Positions 9,347 to 49,588 of a DNA stretch of 64,000 nt are shown here, piece by piece (the stretch's first letter is position 1; every line of letters starts with the position of its first letter). The stretch comes from Patescibacteria group bacterium. Lineage in GTDB: Bacteria > Patescibacteriota > Dojkabacteria > GCA-002793355. Below the pieces are notes generated by a model that was given only the letters and a program-made list of their open reading frames with translations, searched no databases and was not told the origin of the DNA. The position numbers and the translations under genes were made by a program. The stretch spans positions 591,462-655,461 of the forward strand of contig BOKM01000001.1 of NCBI GenBank assembly GCA_016860985.1, written 5' to 3'.

Positions 9347-9367
9347 GACGATAAGAGATTTTGAAAA

Positions 9368-9438
9368 GCGGACGACGGGATTCGAACCCGCGGTCTTCTG
9401 CTTGGGAAGCAGACATTCTGCCACTGAACTACGTCCGC
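9368..9438 (-). tRNA. tRNA-Gly (anticodon CCC)
   Basis: Reverse complement 'GCGGACGTAGTTCAGTGGCAGAATGTCTGCTTCCCAAGCAGAAGACCGCGGGTTCGAATCCCGTCGTCCGC' folds as a cloverleaf: 7-bp acceptor, anticodon loop TTCCCAA, T-loop GGTTCGAATCC. An extended -10 'TGcTATAAT' lies 11 nt upstream on the minus strand (+ strand coordinates 9450-9458). Confidence 0.85.
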
Positions 9439-9498
9439 GATAATGGTGAATTATAGCACTAAAAGAAAAGGTCAGTCCCCCCAGAGTAGTGTCAGGAA

Positions 9499-20307: not shown

Positions 20308-20436
20308 CTGGTATTTTGTCCCCGCTGCCTGCTTCTGTTTCATGGTGTGGATTTTCATAGTCACACAAAATAGTCTGTGCAAGTTGATAGTATCCATATT
20401 CAGAGGAGTCATTATTGTCCGGCTAGAGTAAGACAA

Positions 20437-22407
20437 ATGAGTCGCAATAATGTTTCGATAAAGTTCGCACTATTTACGGTAGTGGTCCTGGAGTATTTGT
20501 TGTTAGTGTTTACATTTTTAGGAAACAGGGTGAAAGCTGATTCCTTCTACCCTGAAGCAGACAATTTTGTTTCGGAGGTGGATTTCTATTATGGATTATC
20601 TTTCTCGCCACGAGCTCTTCCTCTTGTGACATATGATCTCGAACAAGCTGTTGGAAGAAATAGGTCTGATGTTACCGCAGAGGCAATGTATGCAGAAATA
20701 AGTAACCCATCTTCCAGTTGGAGCGAGAGAAGGTTGGTGCTCCCCCCAAGTTCAGATGTTTATCTCGATATTTTAGGCATAAACAAAACCTCTCATATGG
20801 TTGGGGTAAGTAAGTTTTGGTTATTTGTCCAGCGGTATGGGGTGGAGGGAGTAGATGTACTTCTTGAGTCGAGTAATTCAATAATTTACAGAAATATTGC
20901 GTTGAACTACCAAGGTAGTTTAATTACAAAAGGTGGAAGGAGTATTGAATTCCAAGGTTTGGGGAATATAGCAGCGGTTGATGGTGCTGGTAACGTAGGC
21001 AAAAAGCGGAAAGAGGTATATGTAGGCCGTGTTCTTCAACCGATTGAGGTGCGTCTTGATTCGGTGTCGTGTGGAGTGCAATCACGGGACGTGGTGTTTG
21101 AAGTAAAAAATAACGGCAATGCAAAAGCAACAATACGATATAAGAATACGATTTTAGGGGTGAAAGAACAAACCCTTGAGTCATCAACTGTGACTTCGGA
21201 GGTCATGCTCGAAACAGAATACGATCTTCAAGAAGCTATGTTTGTAGTTGAAGTTGAGGAAAGTGAGAATTATTGTTTTGAGGACTTGGGCAGGGGCTTG
21301 TTTGAGTCACCGCTTGATGCTCATGCTGTACTTGTTGCGCGTAATGACGAAGGAAAGCCTTTATGGGGAGGTATTGTCGCGAGTAAACAGATAGAAGGTA
21401 ATTCGCCACGTTTCTGCATTAAGAGGATGGGTTACTCAATTGAAATACCGCTGGAAGAATGCTCGTTGCCAACAAATTACCAAATAGAAGTCTCACAAGC
21501 CTTTGTGACTCTTCCAGCTAACACAGAAATTAGGATTCCGTTTCGTATTCTTAATGTAGGGGGAGAGTCCAAAAATCCTATTTCTTTGACCCTTGCAGCC
21601 CCTGAGGAATGGAAGGAGTGGCTTCAATTAAAGCTTCAAGAATCACCATCTATTGTTAAAGAAGGGGATGAGTTTGGATTGTTGTTAGATAAAAACACTT
21701 TTATTACTGGCGAGATAATAGTTACTTCCCCTGTATTGTTTAGCCATGCTCAAAGTGATGACTTTGCTTTTCGACTTGAAACCCAAGGAAAGTCGGTAAG
21801 TATTGGACTTCACCCAGAAATTAGCGGGACATTTAAGGTTGTTACTTTTGAACAAGATTGTAGTAATGAAAACTTATTTCGGCTTGCCACCTACTTTGAT
21901 TCAGTAGGATTGGTAGTTAACCCAACGATATATCTTTCTATGGTGGGGGATTCGTCTCAGGCTGAAGGAGTGGAGGTTGTTGTTGTAAAAAAAAGAGGTG
22001 AGGTCGTCTTTGAAGGAGGAATTCCTGCTGAGGGTGTTGAAGTAGAGTTTAAGGGAAAATATTACAAGGGATCGGTTGAGTTTGAAATTTTACACAAACC
22101 GCCTGTGACTGGTGGTTTGCGTGCATCACCGGCAGTCAGTGGAGTTACTGCTAAGGTTAGGAGGTGCATTAAACGTACGGCAAAAAAACCAGCAGTAGGG
22201 GCGATACGTGAGGTGTTTGTTTCGAGTGCTCCGGTTTTGGGTGTGCGTTTTCCTGCTTTGCGAAACGCAGTACAAATATCAGAAAGTATTGATAAACTTG
22301 AACCTACACAGTCTGTGGAAATATCGTTGTTTTCGTGGATACTTCTATTATTGATTATCTTACTTGCGAGCGTTGGTTTTTTGATGCTTAAGAGGCTATT
22401 TTCCTAA
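20437..22407 (+). CDS. large hypothetical surface protein (signal anchor, C-terminal TM anchor)
   Basis: Start set at ATG 20437, 'MSRNNVSIKFALFTVVVLEYLLLVF'. C-terminal 'FSWILLLLIILLASVGFLMLKRLFS'. Confidence 0.5.
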   Translation: MSRNNVSIKFALFTVVVLEYLLLVFTFLGNRVKADSFYPEADNFVSEVDFYYGLSFSPRALPLVTYDLEQAVGRNRSDVTAEAMYAEISNPSSSWSERRLVLPPSSDVYLDILGINKTSHMVGVSKFWLFVQRYGVEGVDVLLESSNSIIYRNIALNYQGSLITKGGRSIEFQGLGNIAAVDGAGNVGKKRKEVYVGRVLQPIEVRLDSVSCGVQSRDVVFEVKNNGNAKATIRYKNTILGVKEQTLESSTVTSEVMLETEYDLQEAMFVVEVEESENYCFEDLGRGLFESPLDAHAVLVARNDEGKPLWGGIVASKQIEGNSPRFCIKRMGYSIEIPLEECSLPTNYQIEVSQAFVTLPANTEIRIPFRILNVGGESKNPISLTLAAPEEWKEWLQLKLQESPSIVKEGDEFGLLLDKNTFITGEIIVTSPVLFSHAQSDDFAFRLETQGKSVSIGLHPEISGTFKVVTFEQDCSNENLFRLATYFDSVGLVVNPTIYLSMVGDSSQAEGVEVVVVKKRGEVVFEGGIPAEGVEVEFKGKYYKGSVEFEILHKPPVTGGLRASPAVSGVTAKVRRCIKRTAKKPAVGAIREVFVSSAPVLGVRFPALRNAVQISESIDKLEPTQSVEISLFSWILLLLIILLASVGFLMLKRLFS

Positions 22408-23409
22408 GAATAGTGGTCTTAGCTTCTCCCAATTTGCTTTTGTTACCGCACCAGCCTTTAAATAGTTCTCGATATCATGTAACTCGAATTTTTCAATTTT
22501 TTCTGCCAGTTCATGCTCAAATACTCGTTGGTCTGGGGTGAGCGGAAGCGCGAGGTAATCGAGGCCTATAGATTTCGCGTGACTAGCTCTTGATGCTCTC
22601 AGTACGGTAATTTTCATGTCCTGTCGACTGGTTGGGCAGGGCTTATATTGCAAGTCGCTCGTGAGTATCTCTTCAATGAATAATTGGGTCGCAGGCAGAA
22701 GGGTTGAATCGGCTTTTAGAAGCCGTAGGGCATCTAATACCGAATCGGGTGGGGTTGACCTGTTTTCGTACGCTAATGCTATCTCTTTGCAGTATTCGGT
22801 TAACTTTTTGATTGCAAGGGCGTCTCTTTTTGGGTAGTTCTCCTCTAAAGCTGGGTTAAGTTTCTCAAAAAGTAATGCATCGAGTGACTGTTTGTTTGGA
22901 AAGAGCACAAATTGTTGCTGTCTTCCAATAAAGCGGAAACCTGTGGCAAAGTTAAGTTTGATTGTCGCGAGGTTGTTTTCGTAGGTTCTTCCGTAAATTT
23001 TCATAAATCCTAATGAGAATAAGTAGTCAAAAAAACTTTCGTAACAGGCTTTGGCATATCCTTTCCCTCTGTACTTTGTGTCAGTGTCAATTGCTATTGA
23101 GATATAGCAACTCTTAACGTCCCAGTCGATAAGTTTGATCTTTACGTATCCAATGTATTTTTCTGATAGGAGTTTCTTAATTGTAAGTACATACGTAATC
23201 TCTTTTGGTGGATTCGCGTACATTTTCTCCAAGGATTTTAACTGCTTTTCTTTTGAAATCTTTGTTTTTGTCCTAAATAGTGTCTTTTGAATATCAGAAT
23301 TAGAGAGAAGTTCAACAATAAAGTTAAGATGCTTATGTTGCAAAGGCTGAAGCTGAAGTTCCTTAACTTTTGTTTTGAGAGTTGGAAAGTTTTGCATGTT
23401 TTTCTTCAA
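22396..23409 (-). CDS. GNAT (acetyltransferase-fold) domain protein, first (distal) gene of the ATP-grasp operon
   Basis: Central region 'IAIDTDTKYRGKGYAKACYESFFDYLFSLGFMKIYGRTYENNLATIKLNFATGFRF' matches GNAT motifs A/B. Overlaps the upstream ATP-grasp gene by 47 nt. Confidence 0.5.
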   Translation of the reverse strand: MKKNMQNFPTLKTKVKELQLQPLQHKHLNFIVELLSNSDIQKTLFRTKTKISKEKQLKSLEKMYANPPKEITYVLTIKKLLSEKYIGYVKIKLIDWDVKSCYISIAIDTDTKYRGKGYAKACYESFFDYLFSLGFMKIYGRTYENNLATIKLNFATGFRFIGRQQQFVLFPNKQSLDALLFEKLNPALEENYPKRDALAIKKLTEYCKEIALAYENRSTPPDSVLDALRLLKADSTLLPATQLFIEEILTSDLQYKPCPTSRQDMKITVLRASRASHAKSIGLDYLALPLTPDQRVFEHELAEKIEKFELHDIENYLKAGAVTKANWEKLRPLFLGK

Positions 23410-24403
23410 TGTACTGCACTATTTCTGCTGCGACGTTAACGCCGGTAGAGGATTCAAACCCTCTAAATTGAGGAGCACTATTAGTTTCAATAAGTACTGG
23501 ACCACTTTTGGGCAACATAATATCTACGCCTCTTATCTCTGCATTCTGAAGTCTTACTACGTCAAGTGCAAGTTTTTGAACCTCGGGGGTTATGTCTATG
23601 GGGTACGCATTGGCGCCTTGTGCCACGTTGCCTTTCCACTGTCCCTCTTGTGGTTCTCTTCGCATTGCGCCGAGTATCTTTTGACCAACAACGAACACTC
23701 TCACGTCCCCCATGTAGTCGATACATTCCTGAAAGAGCAGGTCGCCTACTTTTAATTCTTCTGTTCTTAGTAGTTCAAGAACGTCTTTCTTTGATGAACA
23801 CTTAAATACACCTTTGCCCTTTGAACTTTCGGACTTTTTAACGATTAGTGGATACTTCATGTAGTCAAGAAGTTGCAATAGCGACAATTCTGAGGTCACG
23901 GCAAATGTTTTTGCGTAAGGATATCCATCGCTGCTAGTTTTGTAAAAGGTTCCGTGTTTGGACTTATAGTACATCTCCTTCCCGATTTTCTCGTCGACAA
24001 GAGTTTTGTTATGGGACAGGAGGTAGTGGGCGAGAATTGTTGACCATTCTAATGTCTTTGAGATCTCTCTGAATAAAAATGCATCAAAGTAATTTATGTC
24101 AAAGTGATTTTTTACAGAGACCATTTTTTTTCCAAGCATACCTTTCTGCTCAATCTCTGCTTGAAACTCCTTTGGTGGGGTAATTAGAAGTGGTTGTTTG
24201 TCTGTAAACACTTCTGGGAACTTTATTTGCTCCTCTGTTGTTGGCGGCGTAAAGTAAATACCGAATTTTCCACCGTTAAAGAAGTTAGTCTCCACAATTC
24301 GTCGTTTTGAAAGGAAAACGGCCTCGTGGCCTTTCTTTAGTGCTTCGTATAGAATCCGATCACTCTCGTAATATGGATTCATTCCGATGATTGCAATCTT
24401 CAT
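23363..24403 (-). CDS. RimK-like ATP-grasp ligase
   Basis: 'YPLIVKKSESSKGKGVFK', 'VRVFVVGQKILGAMRREPQEGQWKGNVAQGANAYPIDITPEVQKLALDV' and 'RGVDIMLPKSGPVLIETNSAPQFRGFE' match the RimK ATP-grasp core. Confidence 0.7.
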   Translation of the reverse strand: MKIAIIGMNPYYESDRILYEALKKGHEAVFLSKRRIVETNFFNGGKFGIYFTPPTTEEQIKFPEVFTDKQPLLITPPKEFQAEIEQKGMLGKKMVSVKNHFDINYFDAFLFREISKTLEWSTILAHYLLSHNKTLVDEKIGKEMYYKSKHGTFYKTSSDGYPYAKTFAVTSELSLLQLLDYMKYPLIVKKSESSKGKGVFKCSSKKDVLELLRTEELKVGDLLFQECIDYMGDVRVFVVGQKILGAMRREPQEGQWKGNVAQGANAYPIDITPEVQKLALDVVRLQNAEIRGVDIMLPKSGPVLIETNSAPQFRGFESSTGVNVAAEIVQYIEEKHAKLSNSQNKS

Positions 24404-24405
24404 GG

Positions 24406-25314
24406 TTAATTGTGCTGTAATTTTTCAATATAGTCAACGAACATTTTTGCAACATTGATACCATGTGCTTGTGTAAATCCTTGGAATCCAGGGGTTCGAT
24501 TGACTTCGAGTAGGTATGGTTTTCCTTCCTTAGTGTAAACAACGTCTACACCGCCAAAGTTACAGTTAGTTGCTTTTGCTGCTTTTGCTGCAAGGTCTTT
24601 TAACTCACCTGTAAGCTCTGCTGGCTGTACTGTTCCACCGAGAGAGAAATTCGCACGAAAATCGCCCTTTTTAGGAATTCGAAGCATAGCACCGACCACT
24701 TGGTCTGCAACAACAAGAACTCGATAGTCAGCTGCAAGAGGTAAAAACTCTTGTATGTAGAATCTTCCAAGTTTGTTTTCTTCGTTTAGTTCGCTTAACA
24801 AGTTTTCAAGGTCAAGTCGATCATCGACTTTGTAGATTTTTGCTCCTTTACCACTCGATCGATGCTTAACAACCAATGGGTAGCCACATTCTTTTTCTAT
24901 TCGCGGGATGAGTTTCAGGTAGTTTGAAAGTGTGTGTGCATGGTATGTTTTTGGGAAAGGAAGCGCTGCTTGTACAATGCGTTGTCCATCAATGAGTTTG
25001 TTTATCATCATTTTCTCTTCTGCCAGATTGTTATCAACGACTAATTTCCCTTTGTTTTTCATGTAGGAGATTATGTTAAGTGCATATTTGAAGTAAGCAA
25101 ATACCTCGCGTACTAACAAAGCATCATATTGTGCAATATCTCCATGCTCACTGTGGGCAAAAAAGTCACCTTCTGGTCCATAATGCGCATAAACATCTTC
25201 AATTGTGATAATGTCGGCCTTCCATCCGGCTTTTGTAAAAGATTGTTGCAAAGCTTGTGGCTCGAACTTGTTTTTAAATCCTTTTTGGATAAGGATGGCA
25301 ATACTTTTTGACAT
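24406..25314 (-). CDS. RimK-family ATP-grasp ligase (alpha-L-glutamate ligase-like)
   Basis: 'YPLVVKHRSSGKGAKIYKV', 'YRVLVVADQVVGAMLRIPKKGDFRANFSLGGTVQPAELT' and 'GGVDVVYTKEGKPYLLEVNRTPGFQGF' give a close RimK pattern. 2-nt gap to the next gene. Confidence 0.8.
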   Translation of the reverse strand: MSKSIAILIQKGFKNKFEPQALQQSFTKAGWKADIITIEDVYAHYGPEGDFFAHSEHGDIAQYDALLVREVFAYFKYALNIISYMKNKGKLVVDNNLAEEKMMINKLIDGQRIVQAALPFPKTYHAHTLSNYLKLIPRIEKECGYPLVVKHRSSGKGAKIYKVDDRLDLENLLSELNEENKLGRFYIQEFLPLAADYRVLVVADQVVGAMLRIPKKGDFRANFSLGGTVQPAELTGELKDLAAKAAKATNCNFGGVDVVYTKEGKPYLLEVNRTPGFQGFTQAHGINVAKMFVDYIEKLQHN

Positions 25315-25330
25315 TGCTAGCTCAATGAAA

Positions 25331-26836
25331 TTATTGTTGCCTCATGGCAAAAACCCGTGTAGGGTCTATAAGAAATTCCTTTAAATCTTTTCGTCCAATT
25401 ATCACAGGGTAGAGTAAGTCAGATCTGTTGCTTACATTCAAGTTATACGTTTTTGTAACTGCGCCAAGTGTGATAACTGCTTCTATAACTGGTCTAACTG
25501 TATAACCGTTTGTTGACTTTACCACGACAAAATCTTTAATTGTCTCAAATTGTCGTTGTCGTACTTTTTCATCATATTCTTCTCGAATCTCGTGTGCTTC
25601 TTCGAGTGTGTGATATCGCTTGGTAATGATGTTTTGGATGCCAATGAGCTCTTTGTACCCGAGGGCAATGGCTAGGTTGTAATCTATGGCAGATTTAAGC
25701 GCTCCAGTGTCAATCTTTGACTTTACTGACTCTTTTGGAGGTGTCATATTCTTTTTCTTACTCTTTTTTAGAAGATCAAGAACGGCTGGTGTGGGAGATA
25801 CAGAGACTCTTTCAACTAATCCAATGATTTCTCGTCCTGTAAGGTTTTCAACTTGTTCTTCAATCTCTCCACCAAATAGATTCCTTGCGATTGCAACGTA
25901 TTTTTCTACTGTTTTTTTCTTCTTGTAGCGCTGCACTTGATTCATTCTGAGTAAAAGACCTTCTTGATTGGCCAGTTGAATTGCAAGTCCTGGGCGTGCG
26001 TTTAACTCAAGAATCATAGGTCCCTTTTCTTTATCTATAACAATATCTACTCCTGCAAGTCCCAGTTTTGAAATCTGCTGACTTTTAACTGCGAGCTCAA
26101 GTACTTTTTCCCAGTAAGGAATTTTGATTCCTCGGAGGAGAAGCTTTGGCTCATCTAATGTTTCTTCTATTAAGTCGTAGCGATCTCCAATGAGGTCGAA
26201 GCCTTTTCTGTGTATCGCTGTAGTAGTTACCCCAGAACCAATATCAATTCCGACACCAATGCCCCCTGCGTGCAAGTTTGCTGTACCTCTTGATTCTCGT
26301 GTAGGAAGTCGTAATTCTGCCATAATTGGAAAAGAATTGTAGACTATAACGCGAATATCTGGGATTCCTCTGTAGGAGTAGGGCTTAAGTGTTGGGTGAT
26401 TACTAACTCGTTCTTCGAAAAAGGCAACATCTGCCTTTCCATCAATTGAATATTTTCCGTCGATTATGTCGGATACGTGCTGTTTTATCGATTCGACGTT
26501 CATCGTCTCCATGTTTGGCATAATCCACTCCAACTTTCCTTTCTTTTTTCCGTAGAAAACGATAATACCTGACCCGTGAGTCCCCTTGTTGGGTTTAATC
26601 ACAAAGCTGTTTGGAAGTGCTGCCCAGTTGATGTATTCGAGCTGTTGTTTGCTGCGGATAATTTTGAATAGTTCAGGAGTTTTAATCTTTTTCTTCCCTA
26701 GGATACGTTTTGTCAAAAGCTTGTCATCAGCGTAGCGCTTATACTTTGGCGGATTGAGTCTTCGTATAAACCCTAAATTTCGCTGGTTAATTCCCAGTAT
26801 TGATCTTGAGAATTCAGAAAGTGAAAAGCCAAACAT
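25331..26836 (-). CDS. RimK-like ATP-grasp ligase with RLAN N-terminal domain and C-terminal retropepsin-like domain (PF05618, 'putative ATP-dependent zinc protease')
   Basis: N-terminal 'LGINQRNLGFIRRLNPPKYKRYADDKLLTKRIL' is RLAN-like. The ATP-grasp core is 'GIDIGSGVTTTAIHRKGFDLIGDRYD ... LELNARPGLAIQ'. C-terminal 'SKIDTGALKSAIDY ... VIIGRKDLKEFLIDP' has the D-T-G aspartyl-protease-like signature of PF05618. Confidence 0.65.
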   Translation of the reverse strand: MFGFSLSEFSRSILGINQRNLGFIRRLNPPKYKRYADDKLLTKRILGKKKIKTPELFKIIRSKQQLEYINWAALPNSFVIKPNKGTHGSGIIVFYGKKKGKLEWIMPNMETMNVESIKQHVSDIIDGKYSIDGKADVAFFEERVSNHPTLKPYSYRGIPDIRVIVYNSFPIMAELRLPTRESRGTANLHAGGIGVGIDIGSGVTTTAIHRKGFDLIGDRYDLIEETLDEPKLLLRGIKIPYWEKVLELAVKSQQISKLGLAGVDIVIDKEKGPMILELNARPGLAIQLANQEGLLLRMNQVQRYKKKKTVEKYVAIARNLFGGEIEEQVENLTGREIIGLVERVSVSPTPAVLDLLKKSKKKNMTPPKESVKSKIDTGALKSAIDYNLAIALGYKELIGIQNIITKRYHTLEEAHEIREEYDEKVRQRQFETIKDFVVVKSTNGYTVRPVIEAVITLGAVTKTYNLNVSNRSDLLYPVIIGRKDLKEFLIDPTRVFAMRQQ

Positions 26837-26839
26837 GAT

Positions 26840-27484
26840 TTATTGGTTTTTTAATATAGAACCAAAACGAAGTAACTCTGTAAACCTAACTGCAGACCAA
26901 AAGGCAACAATTGCGTCAACAATCAATACGAATATGAGTACCTCGTGATGTGCCGCGAGAAAGGTATTCCAGGTACTCCAGGTAATAAGAAGGCCAGCAA
27001 ATAGTGAAAGTACAACGGTGGTCGCAAGTCTGCGAATAAACTCTTGACTGTCTTTTTTGAATAGTAACGTTGCCAGCTCGTCGATTGTCGTTGCAATAAG
27101 GAAAACACCAATACCAAAAAAGTGGTCACTTACTATTGAGGCATAGGAAGTCTGCGCAATTACGGCCATTGCGATAAGAGAAAAGAAGGTCGCGCCCAAG
27201 TACATAACTGCGACACGTGCGTAGTAGTTAATTTTAAATCTCCTGATGAGATATCTTGTTGCGACAGCAGTACCGATAGTTAGGAGTGAAAAGAGGAGCC
27301 AAAGAACAACTGCAAACAGTGCTGAGTCGAGTAACTGGTAAAAGAAGTAATACGCTAGAGATAGCGCAATGACGGGATAATTCTTCCATGTTTTAAAACC
27401 AATCATATAACGAGTAATAGCAACAAGAGATACGATTATCGGAATATTGAGGAGGATGGCCGGGACGTCTGGTAAGAAAACCAT
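26840..27484 (-). CDS. multi-pass (about 7 TM) membrane protein, promoter-proximal gene of the ATP-grasp operon
   Basis: 214 aa and almost entirely hydrophobic helices. 3-nt gap to the RLAN/ATP-grasp gene. Resembles the 7TM partners of RimK-like ligases. Confidence 0.5.
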   Translation of the reverse strand: MVFLPDVPAILLNIPIIVSLVAITRYMIGFKTWKNYPVIALSLAYYFFYQLLDSALFAVVLWLLFSLLTIGTAVATRYLIRRFKINYYARVAVMYLGATFFSLIAMAVIAQTSYASIVSDHFFGIGVFLIATTIDELATLLFKKDSQEFIRRLATTVVLSLFAGLLITWSTWNTFLAAHHEVLIFVLIVDAIVAFWSAVRFTELLRFGSILKNQ

Positions 27485-27593
27485 GAGACGTTGTATTAAT
27501 TTAACTCTGTATTATATCAAAAACGTGTAGGAGAAGCCATTTTTTCGGGGCTGTTTAGTTGCTTGTTCGTGATAAAAAGAATACAATCTGGGC

Positions 27594-28151
27594 ATGATTG
27601 AAGTAGAATCTAAAATTTTGAATATAGATTGTGAATTAGTGAGAACCAGACTCAAAAGTATTGGTGCGCAGTTTATTTCGGAGAAGTTATTTCATACATT
27701 GTTATTCCGATTGCCAAAAGATCTAAGCAAGGCGACATTGAGATTAAGAAAAGAGGGAGAAAGAGCAGTTCTAACCTTTAAGACGATTGTTAAAAGCCCA
27801 GACGATTCAGTGAAAGTGAGAAATGAAATGGAAACTGAAGTGGAAAATTTTGAGATAATGAAAGGAGTGCTGCTTTCTTTAGGATATCCGGTGTCGCAAG
27901 AGTTTGAAAAGATTCGTGAAGAGTACCGGTTGGATGACGCAGTTATTGTTATTGACCAATTTCAAGGAAGGTATGCAGTTATTCCTCCTCTTCTGGAAAT
28001 TGAAGCTATTGATGCCATCGAGGTGATTCGAATAGCTGAATTGTTGGGGTATGAAAAATCGCAGCTTTCAAGTGCTGGATTGCGTGATTTTGTTGTGCAG
28101 TACAATCTAGGTGAACTTGATAGCGATACTGACAAGAGTGGAGGTTCTTGA
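27594..28151 (+). CDS. CYTH-domain protein (CyaB/ThTPase-like triphosphate tunnel metalloenzyme)
   Basis: 'MIEVESKILNID' has the EXEXK motif at the N-terminus, with 'LRLRKEG..AVLTFK' and an acidic 'E.E.E' strand later; 185 aa. Confidence 0.7.
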   Translation: MIEVESKILNIDCELVRTRLKSIGAQFISEKLFHTLLFRLPKDLSKATLRLRKEGERAVLTFKTIVKSPDDSVKVRNEMETEVENFEIMKGVLLSLGYPVSQEFEKIREEYRLDDAVIVIDQFQGRYAVIPPLLEIEAIDAIEVIRIAELLGYEKSQLSSAGLRDFVVQYNLGELDSDTDKSGGS

Positions 28152-28157
28152 TATAAT
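28129..28157 (+). promoter_or_regulatory. sigma70-like promoter for tRNA-Arg (CTGACA-17-TATAAT)
   Basis: -35 CTGACA 28129-28134, 17-nt spacer, -10 TATAAT 28152-28157. tRNA 5' end 9 nt downstream. Confidence 0.4.
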
Positions 28158-28165
28158 TACGAAGT

Positions 28166-28238
28166 GCGCCTGTAGCTCAACGGATAGAGCAACAGACTTC
28201 TAATCTGTGGGTTGTGGGTTCGATTCCCGCCGGGCGCA
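28166..28238 (+). tRNA. tRNA-Arg (anticodon TCT)
   Basis: Cloverleaf: acceptor GCGCCTG/CGGGCGC, anticodon stem-loop CAGAC-TTCTAAT-CTGTG, T-arm GTGGG-TTCGATT-CCCGC, discriminator A. Confidence 0.85.
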
Positions 28239-28239
28239 G

Positions 28240-28276
28240 GTGAGTGACCACGCTGTTGCGTGGGCAGTCACCTGAG
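28240..28276 (+). terminator. long imperfect hairpin immediately 3' of tRNA-Arg
   Basis: 'AGGTGAGTGACCACGC TGTT GCGTGGGCAGTCACCT' forms an approximately 14-bp stem. No T-run follows, so it may be a processing or structural element rather than an intrinsic terminator. Confidence 0.3.
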
Positions 28277-28376
28277 TATTCGGATTCGACCTTTACTCAG
28301 TTATCTCAAATCTTCAGTGTGTGAAGGAATCGATTGCGTAGCAATATAGACGCCGCTTTATTGTGATGTAGGACAT

Positions 28377-28392
28377 ATTCCCGCCGGGCGCA
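28377..28392 (+). repeat. 16-nt direct repeat of the tRNA-Arg 3' end (ATTCCCGCCGGGCGCA), 138 nt downstream of the tRNA
   Basis: Exact copy of tRNA positions 28223-28238. The copy is flanked by the inverted repeat GGACATAT...ATATGTCC and followed by a T-run. Confidence 0.6.
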
Positions 28393-28683
28393 TTTTTATA
28401 TGTCCTCTAATCCAGTAAATCGTAAAATTTCCCGTTGTTGAATGGATGTGGTCGCGCGGTGTGTTTCCCAAGGGTTCTTTTGCTAGTTATCTAATGCGTA
28501 AATTGGAGTGGTTTTGAATTCGTTCTATTACCCAAACATGAAAAAAGTGAAAATGTAGAACAGGTGCACTGTGAAACACTCTGAGTTGTAAACAGAGGAG
28601 CTGTTTCACAATGCAGACGAAAGTGGCAAAAAGTACCGAATTATCCACTTGTTTTGTGTGTATAAGTCTTGTATATTTAATCA

Positions 28684-31600
28684 ATGAGAAACAGAAGCGG
28701 GCAGAGCCCCTCCGCTTTCCTTCGGGTAACGCTTTTTGCGTTGCTTTTGACGACTTTTTCATTCTTGGGGCAAGTTCGTGCAGCGACGACTGACACAATT
28801 TCTTTTCAAAGCAAGCTTACAAATACCGATGGTACAAACATTTCGAACGGTACGTACAACTTCCGTTTTCGAATGTACTCCGTGTCTTCCGGTGGCACTT
28901 CCCACTGGACTGAAGATAGATCGTTAGTCGTGAATGCTGGCGTTGTGTCTGTTGATTTGGGGGCGGTTCAAAGTTTTCCATCGGATCTATTTGATTATTC
29001 TGATCTCTATCTTCAGGTCTGTTTCGATGCAAATGGAACTGACTTGGATAGCTCTGATGCGAATTGTGGAAGCGGTTCACATCGCTATGAAGAGGTATTT
29101 TCGACAAGAAAAGCAATTACTGCTGTCCCTGTGGCATTTAGAGCAAAATACCTAACGGATGGTGCAGGTAATGCCTACGGGTTTAACGATTTCTTTATCC
29201 AAGGAGGCAATGCCTTTGGGGCGGTTGGGGTTATCGGAACTACTGATAATTATGGTCTTGAATTTAGAACTAACAATTCAGTAGTAGGCTCTTTTGATAC
29301 TTCTGGTACCTTTGAAATGGCAGGGCTAGCAAAAATAGGTGCGGTTGCCATCGATGATGCGCCGTCGAACACTTATGGTCCAGCGCTCTGGGGCGGCACT
29401 TTTAACAATGGATTAACAATTAAACGGGACCTTGTAGACCTTTCAATGCAGGTAGTAACAGGGAGTCTTACGGAATTAAATATTAACCCATCTGCAACTC
29501 CGATAGCAGATTCAGTTGGTTCACTAACGTTAGTGTATAGCAATGCTGCAAATTCTGAGAATCTATCAAGCCTGTATGGTGTTTATGGAGAGACGATACA
29601 TAGTAGTTCAGGTACGGCAGATTATTTATACGGTGGTCATTTTTCAGCTTCGAGGGATACTAGTACCGGAGGGGCAGTGGGTACAACTTATGGAATTAGC
29701 GCATATGCCGCTGATGGCGATAATATAATTGCTGGAAGTTTTGTAGCTAATAGACAATTGGGCGCAACAAATGTAGACACCAAAGGCGTTAGCTCATTCG
29801 TTTCCAATCAATATGCACAGTCTTCTGGTGTCGACAATACATATGGGTCCTATGTGAGTGTATCAAGACAAAATGCAACAGGTGGCACTGTAAATACGTA
29901 TGGTATTTATGCCGAACTTGGTGGCGATAATGCTGGGTCTGGGGTGCATACAACCTACGGTTTATATCTCGAAAATTTTGGAGGTGGCGATACAAACTAT
30001 GCGATTTATACAAATGGTACAACGCCTAGCAGATTCGGTGGAAGTATTACGACCGAAGGTATTCTTGGCATCAAAGAAACCGGTACGACACCTACGTACT
30101 ACACATACTTTCAAGGTGGGGACCAAGCAGGTGATATTACCTATACTTTGCCTACGGCTTCGAGTAACGGGGTACTTACCAACACGGGTGGCGTACTGAG
30201 CTGGGCAGCAGGTGGCGGTGGAATTAGCCAAGTTGGTTCAATGACTAGTTCTGTGGTTTTTGGTGATGTAACTGCAGACGATGACTGGCTTGGTTTGGGT
30301 GCTTCGGCGGGGAGGATTGAATTTGATGATTTAACCATCGATGAAATAAACATTCTTGGTGCGAGAGTTGGTATTGGAACTTCGACGCCTACTGACGCAC
30401 TGTCGTTAGTTGTGAATGAAACAGATAATGCGATTTGGGGTGGCGGTGTATCTGTATTTTATGATTATGCTCCAGCAACAGCAGGCACTGGGTATCCAAT
30501 TGGAATAATAAATTCAGTGAGTGTGGGCGTCGGGAATGCCAATGGAATGAGCGGTTTAATTGGTATACAAAACGAAGTCTCAAATGACGGAAGTGGAGAT
30601 ATAGATAATCTCATTGGTATGATCACTTCTGCTTACAATTCAGGGTCGAATCAGGTCACTTCGATTATGGGTGCATCAATCTCTGCTGGGGCTTCTGGGG
30701 GCGGTGCAACAAATCTAATTGGATTGAATGTTTCTGCTAATGACACTATTCCAGGCGTTACTAACCTGTATGGAATCTATGTCGGAGCATTCAACGATGG
30801 AATCGGAGATACACAAAATCGTTACACTCTCTATCTTGCAGAAGATGAAGATGGAAGCACGGCAGTGAATGATTTTGGCCTGTATTCAGCTGACCCAAAT
30901 GTAGTGAACTACTTTGCAGGAAATGTTGGTATTGGAACTGTTTCACCAACAAGTTTTGTACTGCAGGTGGCTGGAGACATTGGCCCTGACGCTGACGATA
31001 CATACGATTTAGGATCTTCTTCTTTGAGATTTAGGGATTTGTATTTAGGTGGAAACACATTGCATATTGGAAGCTCCTTAACAGACGAAGGTACCATATC
31101 TTATAACACCACGACCAACGTTTTAGGAATCTCTACAGACTCAACGACTAATGGTGATATTGCGTTCTTTACTAATCAACTCTTCTTGGATAAGTCGAGT
31201 GGCAATGTCGGAATTGGAACAACTGCACCACTTTCAACACTAAATATTGCAGATAACACTGGCCCTGTAACGCTTACCTCAACGTTATTGGGTGATCCAG
31301 GAACAACAGGGGCGCTAGGAAGGTATGCATTTAGAGCGGAAACAACGGAAGCCCCAAGTTGGACAACAGTTTACAACACACCAGAGGTAACGGTATCAGC
31401 CTTTGCGTATGATTATGAGAATGGAGTTATGTACGCGGCTGCAGGTGGCGGAAATGGTGTAATTTATCGTTGTGTAGTATCTTCTGGTTGTGATGTTTCA
31501 GGCGATTGGACGGAAGTGTACGATGCAGCTAGTTTGTGGGATCAACCTGCCATTGTGTTTGATGCTGCAACAAATACGGTCTTCTCTACATCTGATGGAG

Positions 31601-34600
31601 TGGTGTCGCGTTGTGATACGAGTACTGGTTGTGACGCACCTGGTGATTGGGCAAATGTATTCACGAGTGGTGATGATGATGTACTTTCACTCGGAGTTGA
31701 TACCGCTAATAGTGTTCTTTACGTTGGTTCAGCATGGACACAAGGAATAATTTACCGATGTGATATTGCAGCAACTAGTTGTGATGCTTCTGGCGACTTT
31801 ACTACAAGTTTTGACACTCCAGACGATGGTCTTACCTCAATGGTCTATGATGCTACAAATGGCACGATGTACGCGGGCAGTGAATGGGGAGGTGAAGTGT
31901 ATCGTTGTGACACAGCAACGGATTGTGACGCCGGAACTGACTGGACTGTATCAGGAGATCTTCCTGGTTCCGGAAATCTAATTCACGCACTTGCAATCGA
32001 TACCGCAAACGATATTTTATATGCATCGTCAGATGATGTCATTTATCGGTGTCCTTTGAGCAGTGGTTGTGATGCTCTTACCGACTGGTCAATCTCGTAT
32101 GATACGAATCTCTCTGGTGTCTACAGTTTAGGGTACGATACTGTACACGAAAGAATGTTTGCAGGAACAGGAAACACCGGAATTGTATATCAATGTGCGA
32201 CTTCTACCGGTTGTGACAGCTCGAGCGATTGGTCAGTATCTTATGATTCGACACAAACCTCGATATTAAGTATTGGTGTAGTGAATGGAGTTGTGTATGC
32301 GGGTAGTGGAAATGGCGGTTTTATCTATCGATTTGATGATAATACTTCTCCGACCTACGCAAACTACGCAGCGATAGAAGCTTATGCAGTTGATACAGTT
32401 ACAGGCTCAGAAGATGGCCGACTATCGTTTAAAACAATGCTTGGTGGAACTGAATATGAGTCACTTCGAGTTTCCGGTAATGCTTCTACGTTTTATAGCT
32501 CACTTTCTTTGGGTACTTCTTCGGCTGGATATGATGCGACATTTAATGCTTCTGGTGTAAATCGTTCTCTTTTCTGGGAATCCTCGACGGGGAGATTGAT
32601 AGGTAGAGATGGTACAAATCCGATGGTTATGTTTACTACTCAACCAAGCACCGCGGATGGTGTCTTTACCTCCTTTAACGCTACCGGCACTTCGAAGGTG
32701 GTCCAGTTCGGTAATGCTGCAATGAATATTGGTGGTGGAGGTAAGTTCCGACTGTTTAATCAGCCAACGTGGGCAGTTGGAGAAGATCCAGGAGCAATGA
32801 GTGCGGTAGAAACACTCGAAATGAACTCGGCAACAGGTTCAATTGGCATTAATCCAAGTGGAAACGCTTCTGCACCTACAACTGAGAATATCCGGATAAC
32901 AACTAATGTAAGTGTGGCAGCAGATATTACCGGACTGTATATTACCGGAAGTAATCCAGGAGGAAGTTGGACCGCAGGGTATTTTGGGGGAAATGTAGGA
33001 ATAGGTGCGACTGGTGTTCCAAATGCCACGCTAAATGTTAGGGGAAGTGCAAATCAAGTGCAGTTTGCAGTAAGAAATAATGGTACGCAAAGTGCAAATA
33101 TGGTTGAGTTTCAGAATTCTTCTGGTACTGCTTTAACTTCCATAAACTCAAGTGGTCATCTTGATTTGTCGGGCAATGCAATTCCAAATGCATGGAATAC
33201 GGTATTAAAATTTAATAATGACACATTAGGGGCTACTGAACTCGCTGGTGGTTTTACGAATGGTTTTATCCGTTCCTCTACAGGCAGATTGCTTGTTAAC
33301 TATATTACTGATAATGCAGCAAACTCACTTTTTGGCGGTGGAGTTAATGGTGATGCCTATAGGCGTTTCACGATGGGTGGTGACGGAAAATGGAGTGTTG
33401 GAGATGGAACAGGGCTTCAAGATACGAACTTATACCGATCTGCTGCAAATCAGTGGACTACAGATGATTCTTTTAGAATAAAGGGAACGCTTGGAGTGAT
33501 GGAAGGCACTGGGGCTACATACTACACTATTTTCCAGGGTGGAGACCAAGCTGGAGATATTACCTATACTTTGCCAACCGCCTCGTCAAATGGCTTCTTG
33601 CAAAATACAGGCGGGTTACTCAGTTGGGCAGCCGGAAGTAGTAGCGTAACTGTCGGTTCAATGACAGGGGGAACCTTGTTTGCCGATGCCACCGCAGATG
33701 ATGATTGGCTAGGTTTAGGGGCAAGTGCAGGTCGCATAGCCTTTGATGATCAAACAACTGACTACGTGAACATTTTAGATGCGAATGTCGGTATCGGAAT
33801 TGCAGCACCAACAGAACGACTTCATATAGCAAACAATGGGGACACGTACTTAAATATCAACGCAACTAATGGATCTGGACAGATAAGCGGCCTTAAACTG
33901 CAACGGGGAACGTGGTTAACCGATACGTATACTGATTACAGTCTCTACGTTTCTAACGGTGATTTTATGATTGACACGCTTGATGACAACGTGACAACGA
34001 ACGTTTTTCATATAGACGGAGCAACCGGCTATACCGGTATTGGAATGTCAACGACAGCAAATCGATTGGCTGTAAAAGGTGGGCAATCAGTAGCCACTAT
34101 TGGTGTGAGTAATTTGATTACGGCAGACGGCACCTTTGCTACTTCGAGTGGGTGGACAGCAGGTTCAGGGTGGAGTATTGGTTCCGGAGTCGTGACTCAC
34201 ACAACAGGTAACACTGCGACATTGTCCGGAACGACTGGTGCAACCGACGATGATCTCGTTTATCAGGTTAATTTTACGGTTGCGGTGACAACTGCGGGTG
34301 ATGGGTTTACGGTATCGCTTGGCGGGAACGATGCGGGAACAACAATAACTACGGCTGGTGCAAAGGTATTGTATATTCGCCCAACTGATTTAACTGGTAC
34401 CCTCGTCTTTACCCCAGGACCTGCTGGAACTTTTGTTGGAACGATTGATGACGTAACAGTATATGCAATAAGTCAATCTAATGCTGATGTTTTGGTCCAA
34501 AACAGCAACGGAACTACTAATCCTCTCGAGTTACGCGCAGGAGGTAGTGGAGCGCTAAGCACATTTATCGGTACTAACGCAGGTCGTTACAATACGACAA

Positions 34601-37600
34601 CAGGTGGTGGTGGAAATGGTTTGTACAACACCTTTGTTGGTTATAACTCCGGAAGGTTTAACGCAACAGGAAATAGTAATACAACCCTTGGGCACTACGC
34701 TTTGGCACGAAATACAACTGGTTACTCTAATACTGCAATCGGTACGTGGGCAATGGAATATAACATCTCTGGCTATCGAAATAGCGCTTTTGGAGATGGC
34801 GCTTTAGGTCTGAACACCACGGGCTACGAAAATAGTGGTTTTGGCATGTACTCGCTTGCAGAAAATACAACAGGTAATCGTAATGTTGCACTTGGTTACG
34901 CCGCACTTGAAGAAAACACAACGGGACATAGCAACATTTCAGTGGGTAGTCGTTCAGGTCGTTATTTGGCAGATGGGTCTACTCCCAATACGAATTCAAT
35001 CGAGTCAATTTTCATTGGAACTGATACAGAAGCACTCGCGGCCAGTGGAACAAACGAGATTGTGATTGGCTATGCAGCAGAAGGGTTAGGAAGTAACTCT
35101 GTGGTTCTTGGAAATGATTCCATTATAAAAACACTTTTGCGAGGTAATGTGGGTATCGGTGCAAGTTCAAGCAACCAATTGTATGTTTACGATGGGCAAT
35201 GGGCCGATACCGTCAACCCACAAGTATTGATTTATGGAGTAGATAATGAAACCCAAGTAAAGGCACTTTCGATTGTAGATGAAAACGATAATGAGTACTT
35301 TTATGTACGTTCGACGACCGATGATCGTGGAGAAACATACTTCTTAGGAGATGTTGGAATAGGTGTCGAATCTCCTGCCTATGCACTCTCGGTTCAGGCG
35401 GCAGCCGGACAAGATGCAATAAACTGGAGAAACCCGACATACGAATTAGGTCGGTTAGGATATTCGACGGATAATGACAGTGGTTGGTTAGGTCTTTATC
35501 GTAATGGTTCAAGTGAGGTTGAAATTAAAGCAAATGGTGATTCTTATTTTAATGGTGGGGATGTTGGTATTGGTTTAGATTATGCAAATACTCGATTGCA
35601 CGTGAAAGGATCTAGTTCCCTCGCAAGTGTAGGGGTGACCAATTTAGTCACCGCAGACGGTACTTTTGCGACATCCTCAGGATGGACAGAGGGAACAGGT
35701 TGGACAATTGGTTCTGGTGTTGCAACGCACGCAACAGGGAATACAGGAATACTTTCAGGTACAACTACAGCAACAAATACATCAACCGTTTATCAAGTAA
35801 ACTTTACAACAACAGTTACAACAGCAGGTGATGGATTAACAGTATCCCTCGGTGGGCAAGACGCAGGTGAAACAATTACAACTGCTGGTGCAAAAACACT
35901 ATATATCGTTCCGTCAGCAGGCACAGGAACACTTGAGTTTAAACTCGGAGCACTTGGTACGTTTGTCGGTACTATTGATGATGTAACAGTGTATGCGTTA
36001 ACGGGTTCCACAGCAGATGCAACATTCGAAAGTAGCAATGGTACGAGCAGCCCGATTGAGTTACGAGCAGGAAGAAGCTCAAGCAACAATACCTTTATTG
36101 GAACGAATGCAGGTAGCTTTAGTACAATAAGCGGTGGGGGAACTTACAACACCTTTATTGGTTATGATTCTGGGCGATACACTACAACAGCTAGTAGAAA
36201 TACTGCACTTGGCACTTGGTCCTTTGCCCAAAACACAACTGGTTATCGAAGCACCGCAATTGGATATTCTGCGTTGAGTGAAAATACAACTGGTTACAGA
36301 AACACTGCACTTGGTTCGAACGCCTTAGAACTAAATACAACAGGGTATGATAACGCAGCCGTTGGAACGTACGCGCTTAATGTGAACACAACGGGTTACG
36401 AAAATGCTTCTTTGGGCATCTACTCACTTGAGGCAAATACAACAGGAAACCGAAATGTTGCAATTGGTTTTGCTGCATTGGAGAATAACACCACAGGGTA
36501 TCGCAATACCGCAATCGGTAGCCGTTCGGGGCGCTACCTTGCCGATGGGGTGACGTCAAATACAAACTCAATATCATCCATTTTCATTGGTTCGGATACA
36601 GAGGCACTTGCAGCAAGTGGCACAAATGAAATTGTGATTGGTTACGGAGCAGAAGGGTTAGGAAGTAACTCGGTAGTACTCGGTAACGACTCCATAACAA
36701 AAACATTACTGCAAGGTAACGTAGGAATTGGTGCGAGTTCAAACAATCAATTATATGTGTACGACTCACAATGGGCAGATATTACGAATCCACAAGTATT
36801 GATTTATGGAGTAGACAACGAAACACAGGTTAAGGCACTTTCGATTGTCGATGAAAATGATAATGAATATTTCTACGTAAGGTCTTCACCCGATGATAAA
36901 GGCGAAACTTATTTTAATGGTGACGTTGGAATTGGAGTAGAATCTCCTGCCTACAAACTAGCGGTTGGTGGAACGCTCGGTATTCTTGAAGGTGGGAGTA
37001 CACCAAGCTTTTATACAATCTTCCAAGGTGGTGATCAGTCGGCAAATCTTACCTACACGTTGCCAACGACTTCTACAAACGGTGTATTGACCAATACTGC
37101 AGGCGTTTTGAGTTGGGTTGCCGGTGGTGGTGGCGGTATTGGGCAGGTTGGTTCGATGACGGGCACTCCGGCTTTTGGCGATGCAACCGCAGACGATGAT
37201 TGGTTAGGTTTAGGTGCGAGTGCGGGAAGAATAGCGTTTGATGACCAAGCAATAGACTACGTCAATATTCTTGATGCGAATGTTGGAATTGGATACGCTA
37301 CGCCAACTGCGAGATTAGATATTCAAGGTACTGTGACCGAAGCTTCGCTCGGAGCTGAAATGATTACTGCAACTGCAGACCGTGATTTCTCTTCTTGGAC
37401 TGGAAATTGGTCGGGCACTGATTGGGCACCAAGTGGTGACGGAAGAGCAAGGCACTTAATTTCAGTTGGCTTTTCGCATCCATTTTCTTTAAGTAATGCT
37501 GCGTTGTCTGCGGCACCAGCTTCCGGGAATGTTTATAAAATTACATTTACGGTAGAAACTTCTACCGTGGGCTCTCTCCTTGTTAGTATCGGGGGTGCAA

Positions 37601-41091: not shown

Positions 41092-41107
41092 TATAAGAAA
41101 GGTAAGG

Positions 41108-44146: not shown

Positions 44147-45698
<1,552 letters not shown>

Positions 45699-45739
45699 TA
45701 GGAGATGAGCGGTTTTCTCGCCACACCAGGATTGTTAAG

Positions 45740-45811
45740 GGGCATGTAGCTCAGTGGTAGAGCACTGTACTGATAATGCAGTGGTCCTTGGTTCGACCCC
45801 AAGCATGCCCA
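45740..45811 (+). tRNA. tRNA-Ile (anticodon GAT) in the 16S-23S spacer
   Basis: 'GGGCATGTAGCTCAGTGGTAGAGCACTGTACTGATAATGCAGTGGTCCTTGGTTCGACCCCAAGCATGCCCA' forms a cloverleaf. Confidence 0.9.
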
Positions 45812-45824
45812 TTTCTAGGGACCC

Positions 45825-45897
45825 GGGCCTGTAGCTCAGTTGGTAGAGCACTCGCTTTGCATGCGAGTTGTCAGGGGTTCGAATCCCCTCAGGTCCA
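45825..45897 (+). tRNA. tRNA-Ala (anticodon TGC) in the 16S-23S spacer
   Basis: 'GGGCCTGTAGCTCAGTTGGTAGAGCACTCGCTTTGCATGCGAGTTGTCAGGGGTTCGAATCCCCTCAGGTCCA' with the G3:U70 alanine identity pair. Confidence 0.9.
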
Positions 45898-46239
45898 AGA
45901 ATCTTTAAAAGGTTCTGAGTCTGAGGAAATGGAAAAATTGCATTATCATAATTAGTCAATGTCGGCTTCCAATATAAACGGAGCCAAAAAGCATTGCATA
46001 CACCTCGGTTCTTTGATAAAATCTGCTTACGCTCGTAAAGAAAGCAGAAGAGAGTGAAGGAATTATGGAGTTTTTCGCAAGGAAAATTCCCAGTTCTTTT
46101 ACTGAAAGGAGGTTCGCCTCTGATAAAGGATGTGCGTTGGTTTTCTTCGGAATTCTGACCTCTCTCATTTGCGCAAGCAAATGAGGGAAAACACATTTGA
46201 ACATTGACAATTGAATTAGGTTTTGTGACCGTACAAAAA

Positions 46240-49370
<3,131 letters not shown>

Positions 49371-49588
49371 TTGTTTGGTCACATACCTATTCAGTTGCTT
49401 TTACATTAGACTCTGTCTAGTACGAAAGCAACTGAAAACACGAATTTCAGACTTGTCTGTGTATAACTTGTTATACAACCTACTTGTAGGTAAAGGAGTG
49501 TTATTCAATTGTCAGTGTTTGCATTTTTCTGTAAACACTTTTCAACTCTATCTAATAAAAATAGACAATGCTCTGTTTTTTATATGCG

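Follow-up and report, generated by a model that had tools for sequence, protein, structure and literature searches.

An operon of three ATP-grasp ligases in Dojkabacteria as a putative new layout of the Rlo/Rim systems

Why should a Patescibacteria genome of about 1 Mb, with little biosynthesis, set aside about 5 kb for three ATP-consuming peptide ligases? The question is raised by five genes at positions 22396-27484 of a 64,000-nucleotide (nt) stretch of DNA from a member of the Dojkabacteria (contig BOKM01000001.1), which we call the window and to whose numbering all positions given here refer. A first-pass annotation had recognised in these genes a membrane protein, three ATP-grasp ligases and a protein of the GNAT fold. 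From profile matches, nearest solved structures, gene order in relatives and the strength of selection, we read them as a new layout of the Rlo/Rim systems, which have been studied already but are still unexplained.

The five open reading frames (ORFs) are present as annotated, all on the minus strand, and are numbered here in transcription order. Gene 1 (26840-27484, 214 amino acids) encodes a seven-transmembrane (7TM) protein, gene 2 (25331-26836, 501 amino acids) a ligase fused to a retropepsin-like domain, and genes 3 (24406-25314, 302 amino acids) and 4 (23363-24403, 346 amino acids) two RimK-family ligases, RimK1 and RimK2. Gene 5 (22396-23409) encodes a GNAT domain with a C-terminal tail and would give a protein of 337 amino acids from a TTG start; an ATG at 23397, giving 333 amino acids, is the more likely start, and this shorter form is identical to the database protein P0121. 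The close packing described in the first-pass annotation stands for the junctions between genes 1 and 2 (3 nt) and genes 3 and 4 (2 nt) and for the overlap of genes 4 and 5 (47 nt from the TTG, 35 nt from the ATG), but genes 2 and 3 lie 16 nt apart rather than 2-3 nt. Such spacing suits translational coupling, and we take the five genes to form one co-transcribed operon. Elsewhere in the window lie leuS, a ComEC-like gene and a ribosomal RNA (rRNA) operon, and because these reside together with the ligase genes it is read as chromosomal DNA and not as a mobile element.

The protein of gene 2 consists of two domains joined by a basic linker. Its residues 18-302 (25931-26785, minus strand) match the ATP-grasp family PF14397 (ATPgrasp_ST) at 4.1e-65, with 220 bits against a cut-off of 31.4, and the protein matches TIGR02291 ('alpha-L-glutamate ligase-like') at 7.9e-78; since its 261.6 bits fall under the equivalog cut-off of 314.2, it is a member of that family but not an equivalog. 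On these matches we assign the ligase half to the RloC type. A weak match to the TTL family PF03133 (3.3e-4) was also recorded. The positions expected to bind ATP and magnesium (K81, G85-G90, E141-E142-R143, D264, E277, N279 and R281) are invariant in 15 diverse homologues. An RLAN module had been proposed for the N-terminus of this ligase and has to be withdrawn, no match to PF14401 being found in any of the five proteins at E <= 0.01. The C-terminal retropepsin-like domain, in contrast, was correctly recognised: residues 361-498 (25343-25756, minus strand) match PF05618 at 4.9e-9, with 36.7 bits against a cut-off of 27, and the NCBIfam model RloA3 at 3.4e-10, and the nearest solved chains are 9g58, 9g59 and 2pma. 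The catalytic motif is kept as D376-T377-G378-A379 (in 'KIDTGALKS', codons 25700-25711), and so is the C-terminal G-R motif of retropepsins (in 'VIIGRKDL'). Neither a signal peptide nor a membrane segment was found in gene 2 (maximum hydropathy over 19 residues, 1.14), and the retropepsin should therefore be cytoplasmic rather than secreted. An exact-sequence look-up of the fusion in the databases returned no record.

Gene 1 shows seven hydrophobic blocks alternating with loops rich in lysine and arginine, in keeping with the roughly 7TM membrane protein that had been described. By itself it scores 18.7 bits against PF14402 (7TM_transglut), under the Pfam cut-off of 25; the family is matched by 13 of its 14 positional orthologues (best 3.9e-34), and it is on these orthologues that we base its assignment, very likely correct, to the PF14402/RloB-like 7TM family. 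A profile scan found no transglutaminase domain in gene 1, all 214 residues being taken up by membrane segments and short loops, with almost no loops on the extracellular side, and the protein can be described as an RloB-family 7TM protein apparently cut down to its membrane part. Five residues (R25, G29, K144, R206 and F207) are invariant among the orthologues, and these sit in or beside the loops rich in lysine and arginine, presumably in the cytoplasm.

The annotation of genes 3 and 4 as RimK-family ligases holds, both proteins reaching the cut-off of the RimK family model TIGR00768 (143.4 bits), with 158.4 bits for gene 3 and 143.8 for gene 4; PF08443 is matched at 3.7e-33 and 3.5e-32, respectively. 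The closest solved structures to gene 3 are the RimK proteins of Escherichia coli (5zct, 4iwx) and Pseudomonas (7qyr), and the closest to gene 4 is again 7qyr (5.6e-28). The two are paralogues with 32% identity, gene 4 having a longer and divergent N-terminal domain; the family of gene 3 is confined to the clade of the window, and RimK1 itself has an exact match among database records. Against the equivalog model for S6 ligases (NF007764, cut-off 331 bits) they score 88.6 and 78.7 bits, and they are probably RimK-family ligases other than standard S6 polyglutamylases. Both retain the equivalents of R189, D248 and E260-x-N262 (residue roles from PMC10092738). Among the distant matches to gene 3 are three proteins of 459-465 amino acids (P0193, P0197 and P0205) that combine a RimK-family ligase with PF05618, which shows that ligase and retropepsin became fused not only in RloC-type proteins but also among true RimK proteins.

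In gene 5, numbered from the ATG, the N-terminal half (residues 1-180; 22858-23397, minus strand) matches the GNAT family PF13302 at 1e-10, above its cut-off, and its acetyl-CoA motif R110-x-x-G113-x-A is invariant among the orthologues. In structure it is matched best by RimJ and RimL, which acetylate ribosomal proteins, and we read it as a RimJ/RimL-like N-alpha-acetyltransferase. The family is small, with 27 clusters in 5.8 billion sequences and about 15 representatives at E < 1e-30 in 1.84 billion. The call of a GNAT protein is thereby upheld, but the other half, which had been left as unknown, is no longer wholly unplaced. This half (residues 181-333 and the stop codon; 22396-22857, minus strand), a compact all-helical domain, is probably a shortened and catalytically dead remnant of a metallocarboxypeptidase of the MATCAP/DUF1704 family.

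The evidence for this origin is a graded series of orthologues. At one end stand proteins of 550-582 amino acids (P0138, P0140 and P0144) whose C-terminal domain matches the MATCAP family PF08014 with 35-48 bits, against a cut-off of 27, and bears HExxH and QEGLA motifs; P0140 also matches (3e-5, with 1.84 billion proteins searched) the genuine standalone MATCAP P0223, which itself scores 3.6e-83 against PF08014. From there the series passes through proteins of full length without HExxH (P0141, P0146) and forms of about 400-420 (P0132, P0136) and about 360-380 amino acids to the 333 amino acids of the window, whose tail has no Pfam match, no HExxH or HExxxH and no E/QEG motif. A profile of the long tails reaches the intermediates P0136 (2e-6) and P0127 (5e-4), and one further round extends to the window tail (3e-6), the database searched being very small. 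A direct hhalign comparison of the short tails with the long MATCAP tails is weak (E 6.8e-4, probability 27%), so that the link runs only through the intermediate sequences, and a fold search of the window tail gave no match to the MATCAP fold, which leaves the link unconfirmed by fold. The fused MATCAPs (P0138, P0140, P0143 and P0144) have HExxH (for example HESIH) with QEGLA, and the standalone MATCAPs of Dojkabacteria have the canonical HExxxH (HEVGTH) with EEGL. This difference of one residue in the zinc motif may reflect an altered activity that preceded the decay of the domain. Passing from intact to dead to shortened forms fused to the GNAT, the series would be a clear case of domain decay within a conserved operon.

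Selection on these genes was gauged by the ratio of nonsynonymous to synonymous substitution rates (dN/dS) between the window and a close relative (L090). The lowest values belong to RimK1 (0.007), RimK2 (0.014), the 7TM protein (0.021) and the ligase-retropepsin fusion (0.025), followed by LeuS (0.028), the apurinic/apyrimidinic (AP) endonuclease (0.059), the GNAT domain (0.064), ComEC (0.167), CYTH (0.171) and the GNAT tail (0.18). Set against L091, which is more distantly related, the window shares 96% identity in the fusion and in RimK1 and 88% in LeuS. By these measures the ligases are as constrained as leucyl-tRNA synthetase or more so, and among the most constrained genes of the neighbourhood; evolution this slow, in so small a genome (about 1 Mb), points to a function of importance. 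The tail of gene 5, at 0.18, evolves fast, is still maintained and is not a dead pseudogene.

The same five genes in the same order are found at five other loci (L011-L015) and are partly visible on a short contig (L010), together six GTDB species, in which the fusion protein shares 68-86% identity with that of the window; the order recurs in L001-L004, L090 and L091. Gene-neighbourhood conservation, which the first-pass annotation had named as a check on its reading, is thus seen in at least six other species of Dojkabacteria, and the operon stays intact although its upstream neighbour changes among relatives.

For a wider view, layouts were surveyed at 80 GTDB loci, motifs in 89 fusion homologues and neighbouring genes at 64 loci of the sister clade. 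The constant core of the layouts is a 7TM gene followed by the ligase-retropepsin fusion, accompanied by zero, one, two or three extra ATP-grasp genes. At about 60 of the 80 loci three other ATP-grasp genes (about 330, 560 and 310 amino acids) follow the core, and most of the complete contigs of this kind add a convergent gene for an intact MATCAP (HExxxH, EEGL; PF08014 at 8e-33 in L073). The core stands by itself at seven loci (L005-L007, L017, L069, L074 and L083), and five others (L016, L076, L081, L084 and L085) combine the parts differently. The core is widespread in Dojkabacteria, and its add-ons are interchangeable. The three-ligase version (L008, L009, L018-L089) shares with the window the same core, extra ATP-grasp ligases and a MATCAP-family peptidase. 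It differs in that its extra ligases are of other subfamilies, AG1 and AG2 forming a related pair and AG3 being only 20-25% identical to RimK1 or RimK2, in that its MATCAP is separate, convergent and intact, and in that it has no GNAT. A MATCAP-family peptidase thus appears to have been an ancestral partner in both main layouts, and to have become fused to the GNAT and to be decaying in the clade of the window. The remark that three ligases with a GNAT are unusual therefore needs qualifying: the exact combination is limited to a small subclade, but several ligases are the norm, most Dojkabacteria loci carrying four.

The retropepsin motif could be followed through the same surveys. D-T-G is retained in 78 of the 89 fusion homologues, and every locus with the layout of the window keeps it or the variant D-S-G (L013). 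We had entertained a complementary loss of retropepsin and MATCAP and reject it, because D-T-G is kept whatever the state of the MATCAP, which implies that the two peptidases are not simple substitutes. As to neighbouring genes, the operon of the sister clade lies within 6 kb downstream of rplJ-rplL at 42 of the 64 loci and has mreB downstream of it at 25, and neither adjacency was found in the clade of the window. The proximity may have been inherited with the gene order, or it may hint at a function connected with the ribosome or cell shape.

Among characterised systems, the core of 7TM protein, ligase and retropepsin has as its apparent counterpart, in compact form, the rloABC genes of Pseudomonas aeruginosa, which were studied genetically and structurally in 2025 (PMC11957051). 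In that system RloA, a retropepsin that is secreted, cuts polyglutamate in vitro, the ATP-grasp protein RloC, whose product is not known, is cytoplasmic, and a triple rloA mutant loses its osmotic, biofilm and morphology defects when rloB or rloC is deleted in addition; 96% of the RloB hits fall in Proteobacteria (PMC11957051). Common to both is the joint encoding of a 7TM protein, in the window very likely of PF14402, a PF14397/TIGR02291-type ATP-grasp protein and a PF05618 retropepsin with the DTG motif. The differences are several. The 7TM protein of the window lacks a transglutaminase domain and shows hardly any loops outside the cell, whereas RloB has an inactive transglutaminase exposed outside the cytoplasm; the retropepsin of the window forms the C-terminal part of the ligase protein and lacks a signal peptide, whereas RloA is separate and secreted; its ligase stays under the TIGR02291 equivalog cut-off; two RimK ligases and the gene for the GNAT and MATCAP remnant are added; and the host is a Patescibacterium.

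The second relevant system is that of RimK and RimB. RimK adds alpha-linked glutamate to the tail of ribosomal protein S6 and also makes free poly-alpha-glutamate, RimB trims these chains and stimulates RimK, and a hybrid of the two (RimBK) is both natural and active (PMC11957791, PMC10092738); the whole (RimABK) is the S6 polyglutamylation system (PMC4741518). The window resembles it in pairing an ATP-grasp alpha-L-amino-acid ligase with a retropepsin that would trim the product, and the fusion of ligase and protease has a precedent in RimBK, although the protease of the window is C-terminal to an RloC-type ligase and that of RimBK is N-terminal to a true RimK. Unlike RimABK, the window has no RimA and does have a 7TM partner, and its genes 3 and 4 lie far under the S6-ligase cut-off with the polyglutamate contacts partly gone. 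Klebsiella CfmP was considered as a further relative and set aside as not relevant, since it belongs to another ATP-grasp family (TupA-like). That the operon is an amidoligase system such as Iyer, Aravind and colleagues had predicted, as first proposed, agrees with the conserved cluster, its 7TM partner and its retropepsin-like peptidase, and the core of such systems is no longer prediction only, given rloABC (PMC11957051) and the active RimBK (PMC11957791). A literature search, incomplete in its coverage, found no description of such systems in Patescibacteria, the version with three extra ligases and a MATCAP included.

What, then, would the operon make? Stepwise, ATP-dependent formation of peptide bonds, as the first-pass annotation suggested, remains the natural reading of three ligases that all keep their ATP-grasp catalytic motifs under very strong purifying selection. 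We propose a membrane-associated system of the Rlo/Rim kind that would build a peptide without ribosomes and then trim it. The soluble enzymes would sit on the cytoplasmic side of the membrane and act there while docked on the conserved basic loops of the 7TM protein; docking on the inner face is probable because the invariant residues of that protein are in or near its basic loops, and the soluble parts appear to be cytoplasmic. Each ligase would activate the carboxyl group of an acceptor as an acyl-phosphate and add one amino acid, most likely glutamate or another acidic residue to judge by the family, and the presence of three ligases suggests separate steps (start, extend and finish) or separate residues. 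The retropepsin would limit or recycle the chain, as RimB does for RimK, and the GNAT would acetylate the free alpha-amino group. The starting material of the chain would be an amino acid, either free or on a carrier, and the chain would be passed to the 7TM protein or kept there. Successive ligations capped by an acyl group have been proposed for linked ATP-grasp ligases and a GNAT (PMC4431377).

To the view that the operon makes a short peptide or amino-acid conjugate, N-acetylated and probably acidic, we give an even chance; it is favoured because capping of an alpha-amine requires a free N-terminus. N-acetylated peptides are made elsewhere by comparable routes, N-acetylaspartylglutamate (NAAG) through RIMKLA or RIMKLB and N-acetylglutaminylglutamine through a synthetase that is itself a fusion of GNAT and ATP-grasp domains (TIGR03103). 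Like the window, these routes use an N-acetyltransferase together with RimK-like ligases, by which an acidic amino acid with a blocked N-terminus is extended. The window differs from them in its 7TM partner and protease, and the sole sequence link, a very weak match to TIGR03103 (1.3e-3), does not imply orthology.

Several observations weigh against such a product. GNATs of the RimJ/RimL type typically act on the N-termini of proteins, which would fit the tagging of a protein equally well. No candidate gene for a precursor or carrier was found within the operon, and the topology of the 7TM protein and the docking of the ligases on it are drawn from hydropathy and the positive-inside rule alone. 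With few extracellular loops and no recognised transporter fold in the 7TM protein, export is speculative. R8 of Pseudomonas RimK is replaced by G or Q in RimK1 and by M in RimK2, and H215-R216 by S-L in RimK1 and A-Q in RimK2. In Pseudomonas RimK these residues contact the bound polyglutamate chain (PMC10092738), and with the contacts now neutral in both paralogues glutamate chains may not be their substrate.

If the acceptor were not a small molecule, the operon could carry out reversible C-terminal tagging of a specific protein, S6 or another with an acidic tail (compare TTL/TTLL), with the retropepsin, and ancestrally the MATCAP, as erasers and the GNAT acetylating that protein, or a partner of it, at the N-terminus; we hold this to be a real but minority possibility. 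RimJ, RimL and RimI acetylate the N-termini of ribosomal proteins, and the first two are the best structural matches of the GNAT. RimK1 and RimK2 reach the RimK family cut-off and have S6-glutamate ligases as their nearest solved structures, and the operon of the sister clade lies within 6 kb downstream of rplL at 42 of 64 loci. The characterised relatives of both types of peptidase act on protein tails, RimB on S6 (PMC11957791) and the MATCAP/TMCP metallocarboxypeptidases on tubulin, where they remove C-terminal residues and shorten the polyglutamate chains (PMC10499314), and operons of ligase and peptidase have been proposed to be reversible peptide-tagging systems akin to the TTL enzymes (PMC3495828). 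The scores of 88.6 and 78.7 bits against an S6-ligase cut-off of 331, however, argue against such tagging, as does the absence of several basic residues of the polyglutamate channel from both RimK paralogues. A 7TM partner, moreover, has no part in the modification of ribosomes, and the proximity to rplJ-rplL, not seen in the clade of the window, is perhaps inherited gene order. An S6 gene was searched for in the window and at 89 loci (L001-L089) and not found, and there was accordingly no S6 C-terminus to read.

A bolder form of protein modification, which we consider unlikely, would take in the whole Dojkabacteria system as a bacterial 'tail-code' machine, in which one particular protein at the membrane would have a tail of mixed amino acids written onto its C-terminus and erased again, the parts being a 7TM anchor, up to four ATP-grasp ligases, a retropepsin and a MATCAP carboxypeptidase. 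The resemblance here is to the eukaryotic tubulin tail cycle (TTL/TTLL with MATCAP/TMCP), in which ATP-grasp ligases are likewise paired with an eraser of the MATCAP family. It is a likeness of system logic and shared families, which is not evidence of a shared substrate; no tubulin-like target is present, and the MATCAP domain of the window has lost its metal-binding motifs.

Slightly more doubtful is the modification of a cell-envelope precursor bound to the membrane, be it of peptidoglycan, a teichoic-acid-like polymer or a polysaccharide. Amino acids would be joined to one of its carboxyl groups on the inner side of the membrane, with the 7TM protein presenting or flipping the lipid-linked molecule and the peptidase editing it. 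Pfam labels PF14397 'sugar-transfer associated', the two-gene core lies directly downstream of murB in L005 and L006, and mreB is found downstream at 25 of 64 sister-clade loci. The clade of the window, however, has no conserved neighbouring glycosyltransferase, flippase or Mur-type gene, and the glycosyltransferase of L073 is an insertion on the opposite strand that occurs at a few loci only. To our knowledge, neither RimK-family enzymes nor MATCAP peptidases act on glycan-linked substrates.

We regard as very improbable the maturation of a ribosomally synthesised and post-translationally modified peptide (RiPP) of the graspetide type, in which ATP-grasp enzymes would form lactam or lactone cross-links, the protease remove the leader and the GNAT acetylate the product. 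The ATP-grasp proteins do match maturase models weakly (TIGR04187 at 1e-4 to 8e-7, TIGR04184 at 6e-3), but their matches to RimK models are at least 30 orders of magnitude stronger, the gaps of 2-16 nt and the 109-bp spacer upstream of gene 1 are too small for a precursor-peptide gene, and scans of the operon with Rfam and PADLOC models came back empty. The chance juxtaposition of unrelated housekeeping ATP-grasp paralogues (Ddl, GshB and similar), to which weak secondary matches of the operon proteins to Ddl and glutathione-synthetase models are the only pointer, is effectively refuted by best matches to RimK and RloC models by wide margins, by a gene order conserved in at least six species despite differing flanks, and by spacing that suits translational coupling.

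The spacer of 109 bp (27485-27593) separates the operon from a divergent CYTH gene (27594-28239, plus strand), in agreement with the roughly 110 bp noted at first. Within the spacer a putative extended -10 element, TGaTATAAT (27511-27519, minus strand), was read by eye 27 nt upstream of the start codon of gene 1; a consensus promoter scan found no -35/-10 pair at this site, and the element is only a lead. Promoter and terminator scans of 21800-28400 gave numbers at the level of chance (15 against 12.8 expected and 7 against 5.9). No Rfam match fell inside the operon, and PADLOC defence models found none among the six proteins scanned. The CYTH protein scores 69.8 bits against TIGR00318 (cut-off 57.95) and so reaches the cut-off of CyaB, the class IV adenylate cyclase model, which goes beyond a generic triphosphatase. 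It adjoins the operon in the window, L011, L013, L090 and L091 only, and was not adjacent in L012, L014 or L015 nor at any three-ligase locus; it is a neighbour in close relatives and not a conserved operon partner. A tRNA-Arg(TCT) gene follows 14 nt after it, and just before this tRNA gene lies a strong promoter-like site (28129-28157) with 11 of 12 matches and an upstream TG.

On the other side the operon meets a convergent ORF of 676 amino acids (20377-22407, plus strand), whose 3' end overlaps that of gene 5 by 12 nt. It has no Pfam match and bears hydrophobic segments at both ends, and it evolves fast, with 73% identity and a dN/dS of 0.21 relative to L090 and 42% identity relative to L091; it is missing in L001 and L014. 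Beyond the CYTH gene a giant ORF of 4135 amino acids with long internal repeats (28684-41091, plus strand) is followed by one of 815 amino acids with NHL/beta-propeller and Ig-like domains (41069-43516, plus strand), and a further ORF of 1597 amino acids lies at 52811-57604 (plus strand). The giant gene adjoins the operon in relatives as well, beyond CYTH where CYTH is present, and its size is very variable, with products of 4439 amino acids in L090 and 3550 in L091 and a Peptidase_S74 protein of 1499 amino acids in L001; these large ORFs are probably fast-changing surface proteins. The rRNA operon (44147-49375) runs in the order 16S, tRNA-Ile, tRNA-Ala, 23S, the 23S match of 3142 nt exceeding the model of 2925 nt by about 200 nt of extra sequence, and the 5S rRNA gene (59579-59693) is unlinked, about 10 kb downstream with protein genes between. 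Finally, the longest ORF that can be drawn for an ABC-transporter ATPase gene (7517-9508, minus strand) contains at its 5' end, on the same strand, a tRNA-Gly(CCC) gene (9367-9438, minus strand), so that the true start of the ATPase must be further downstream.

The operon ties together three subjects: rloABC, with its envelope and stress phenotypes in Pseudomonas, the polyglutamylation carried out by RimK and RimB, and the MATCAP tubulin carboxypeptidases. Its Dojkabacteria versions are compact, modular and apparently all cytoplasmic, and they could be a simpler route to the product of the Rlo-type ligases. If the whole system did write and erase tails on a protein at the membrane, it would be a prokaryotic counterpart, and possibly the evolutionary source, of the tubulin tyrosination and glutamylation cycle, and, being conserved as strongly as an aminoacyl-tRNA synthetase, it would be near-essential in these minimal-genome bacteria.

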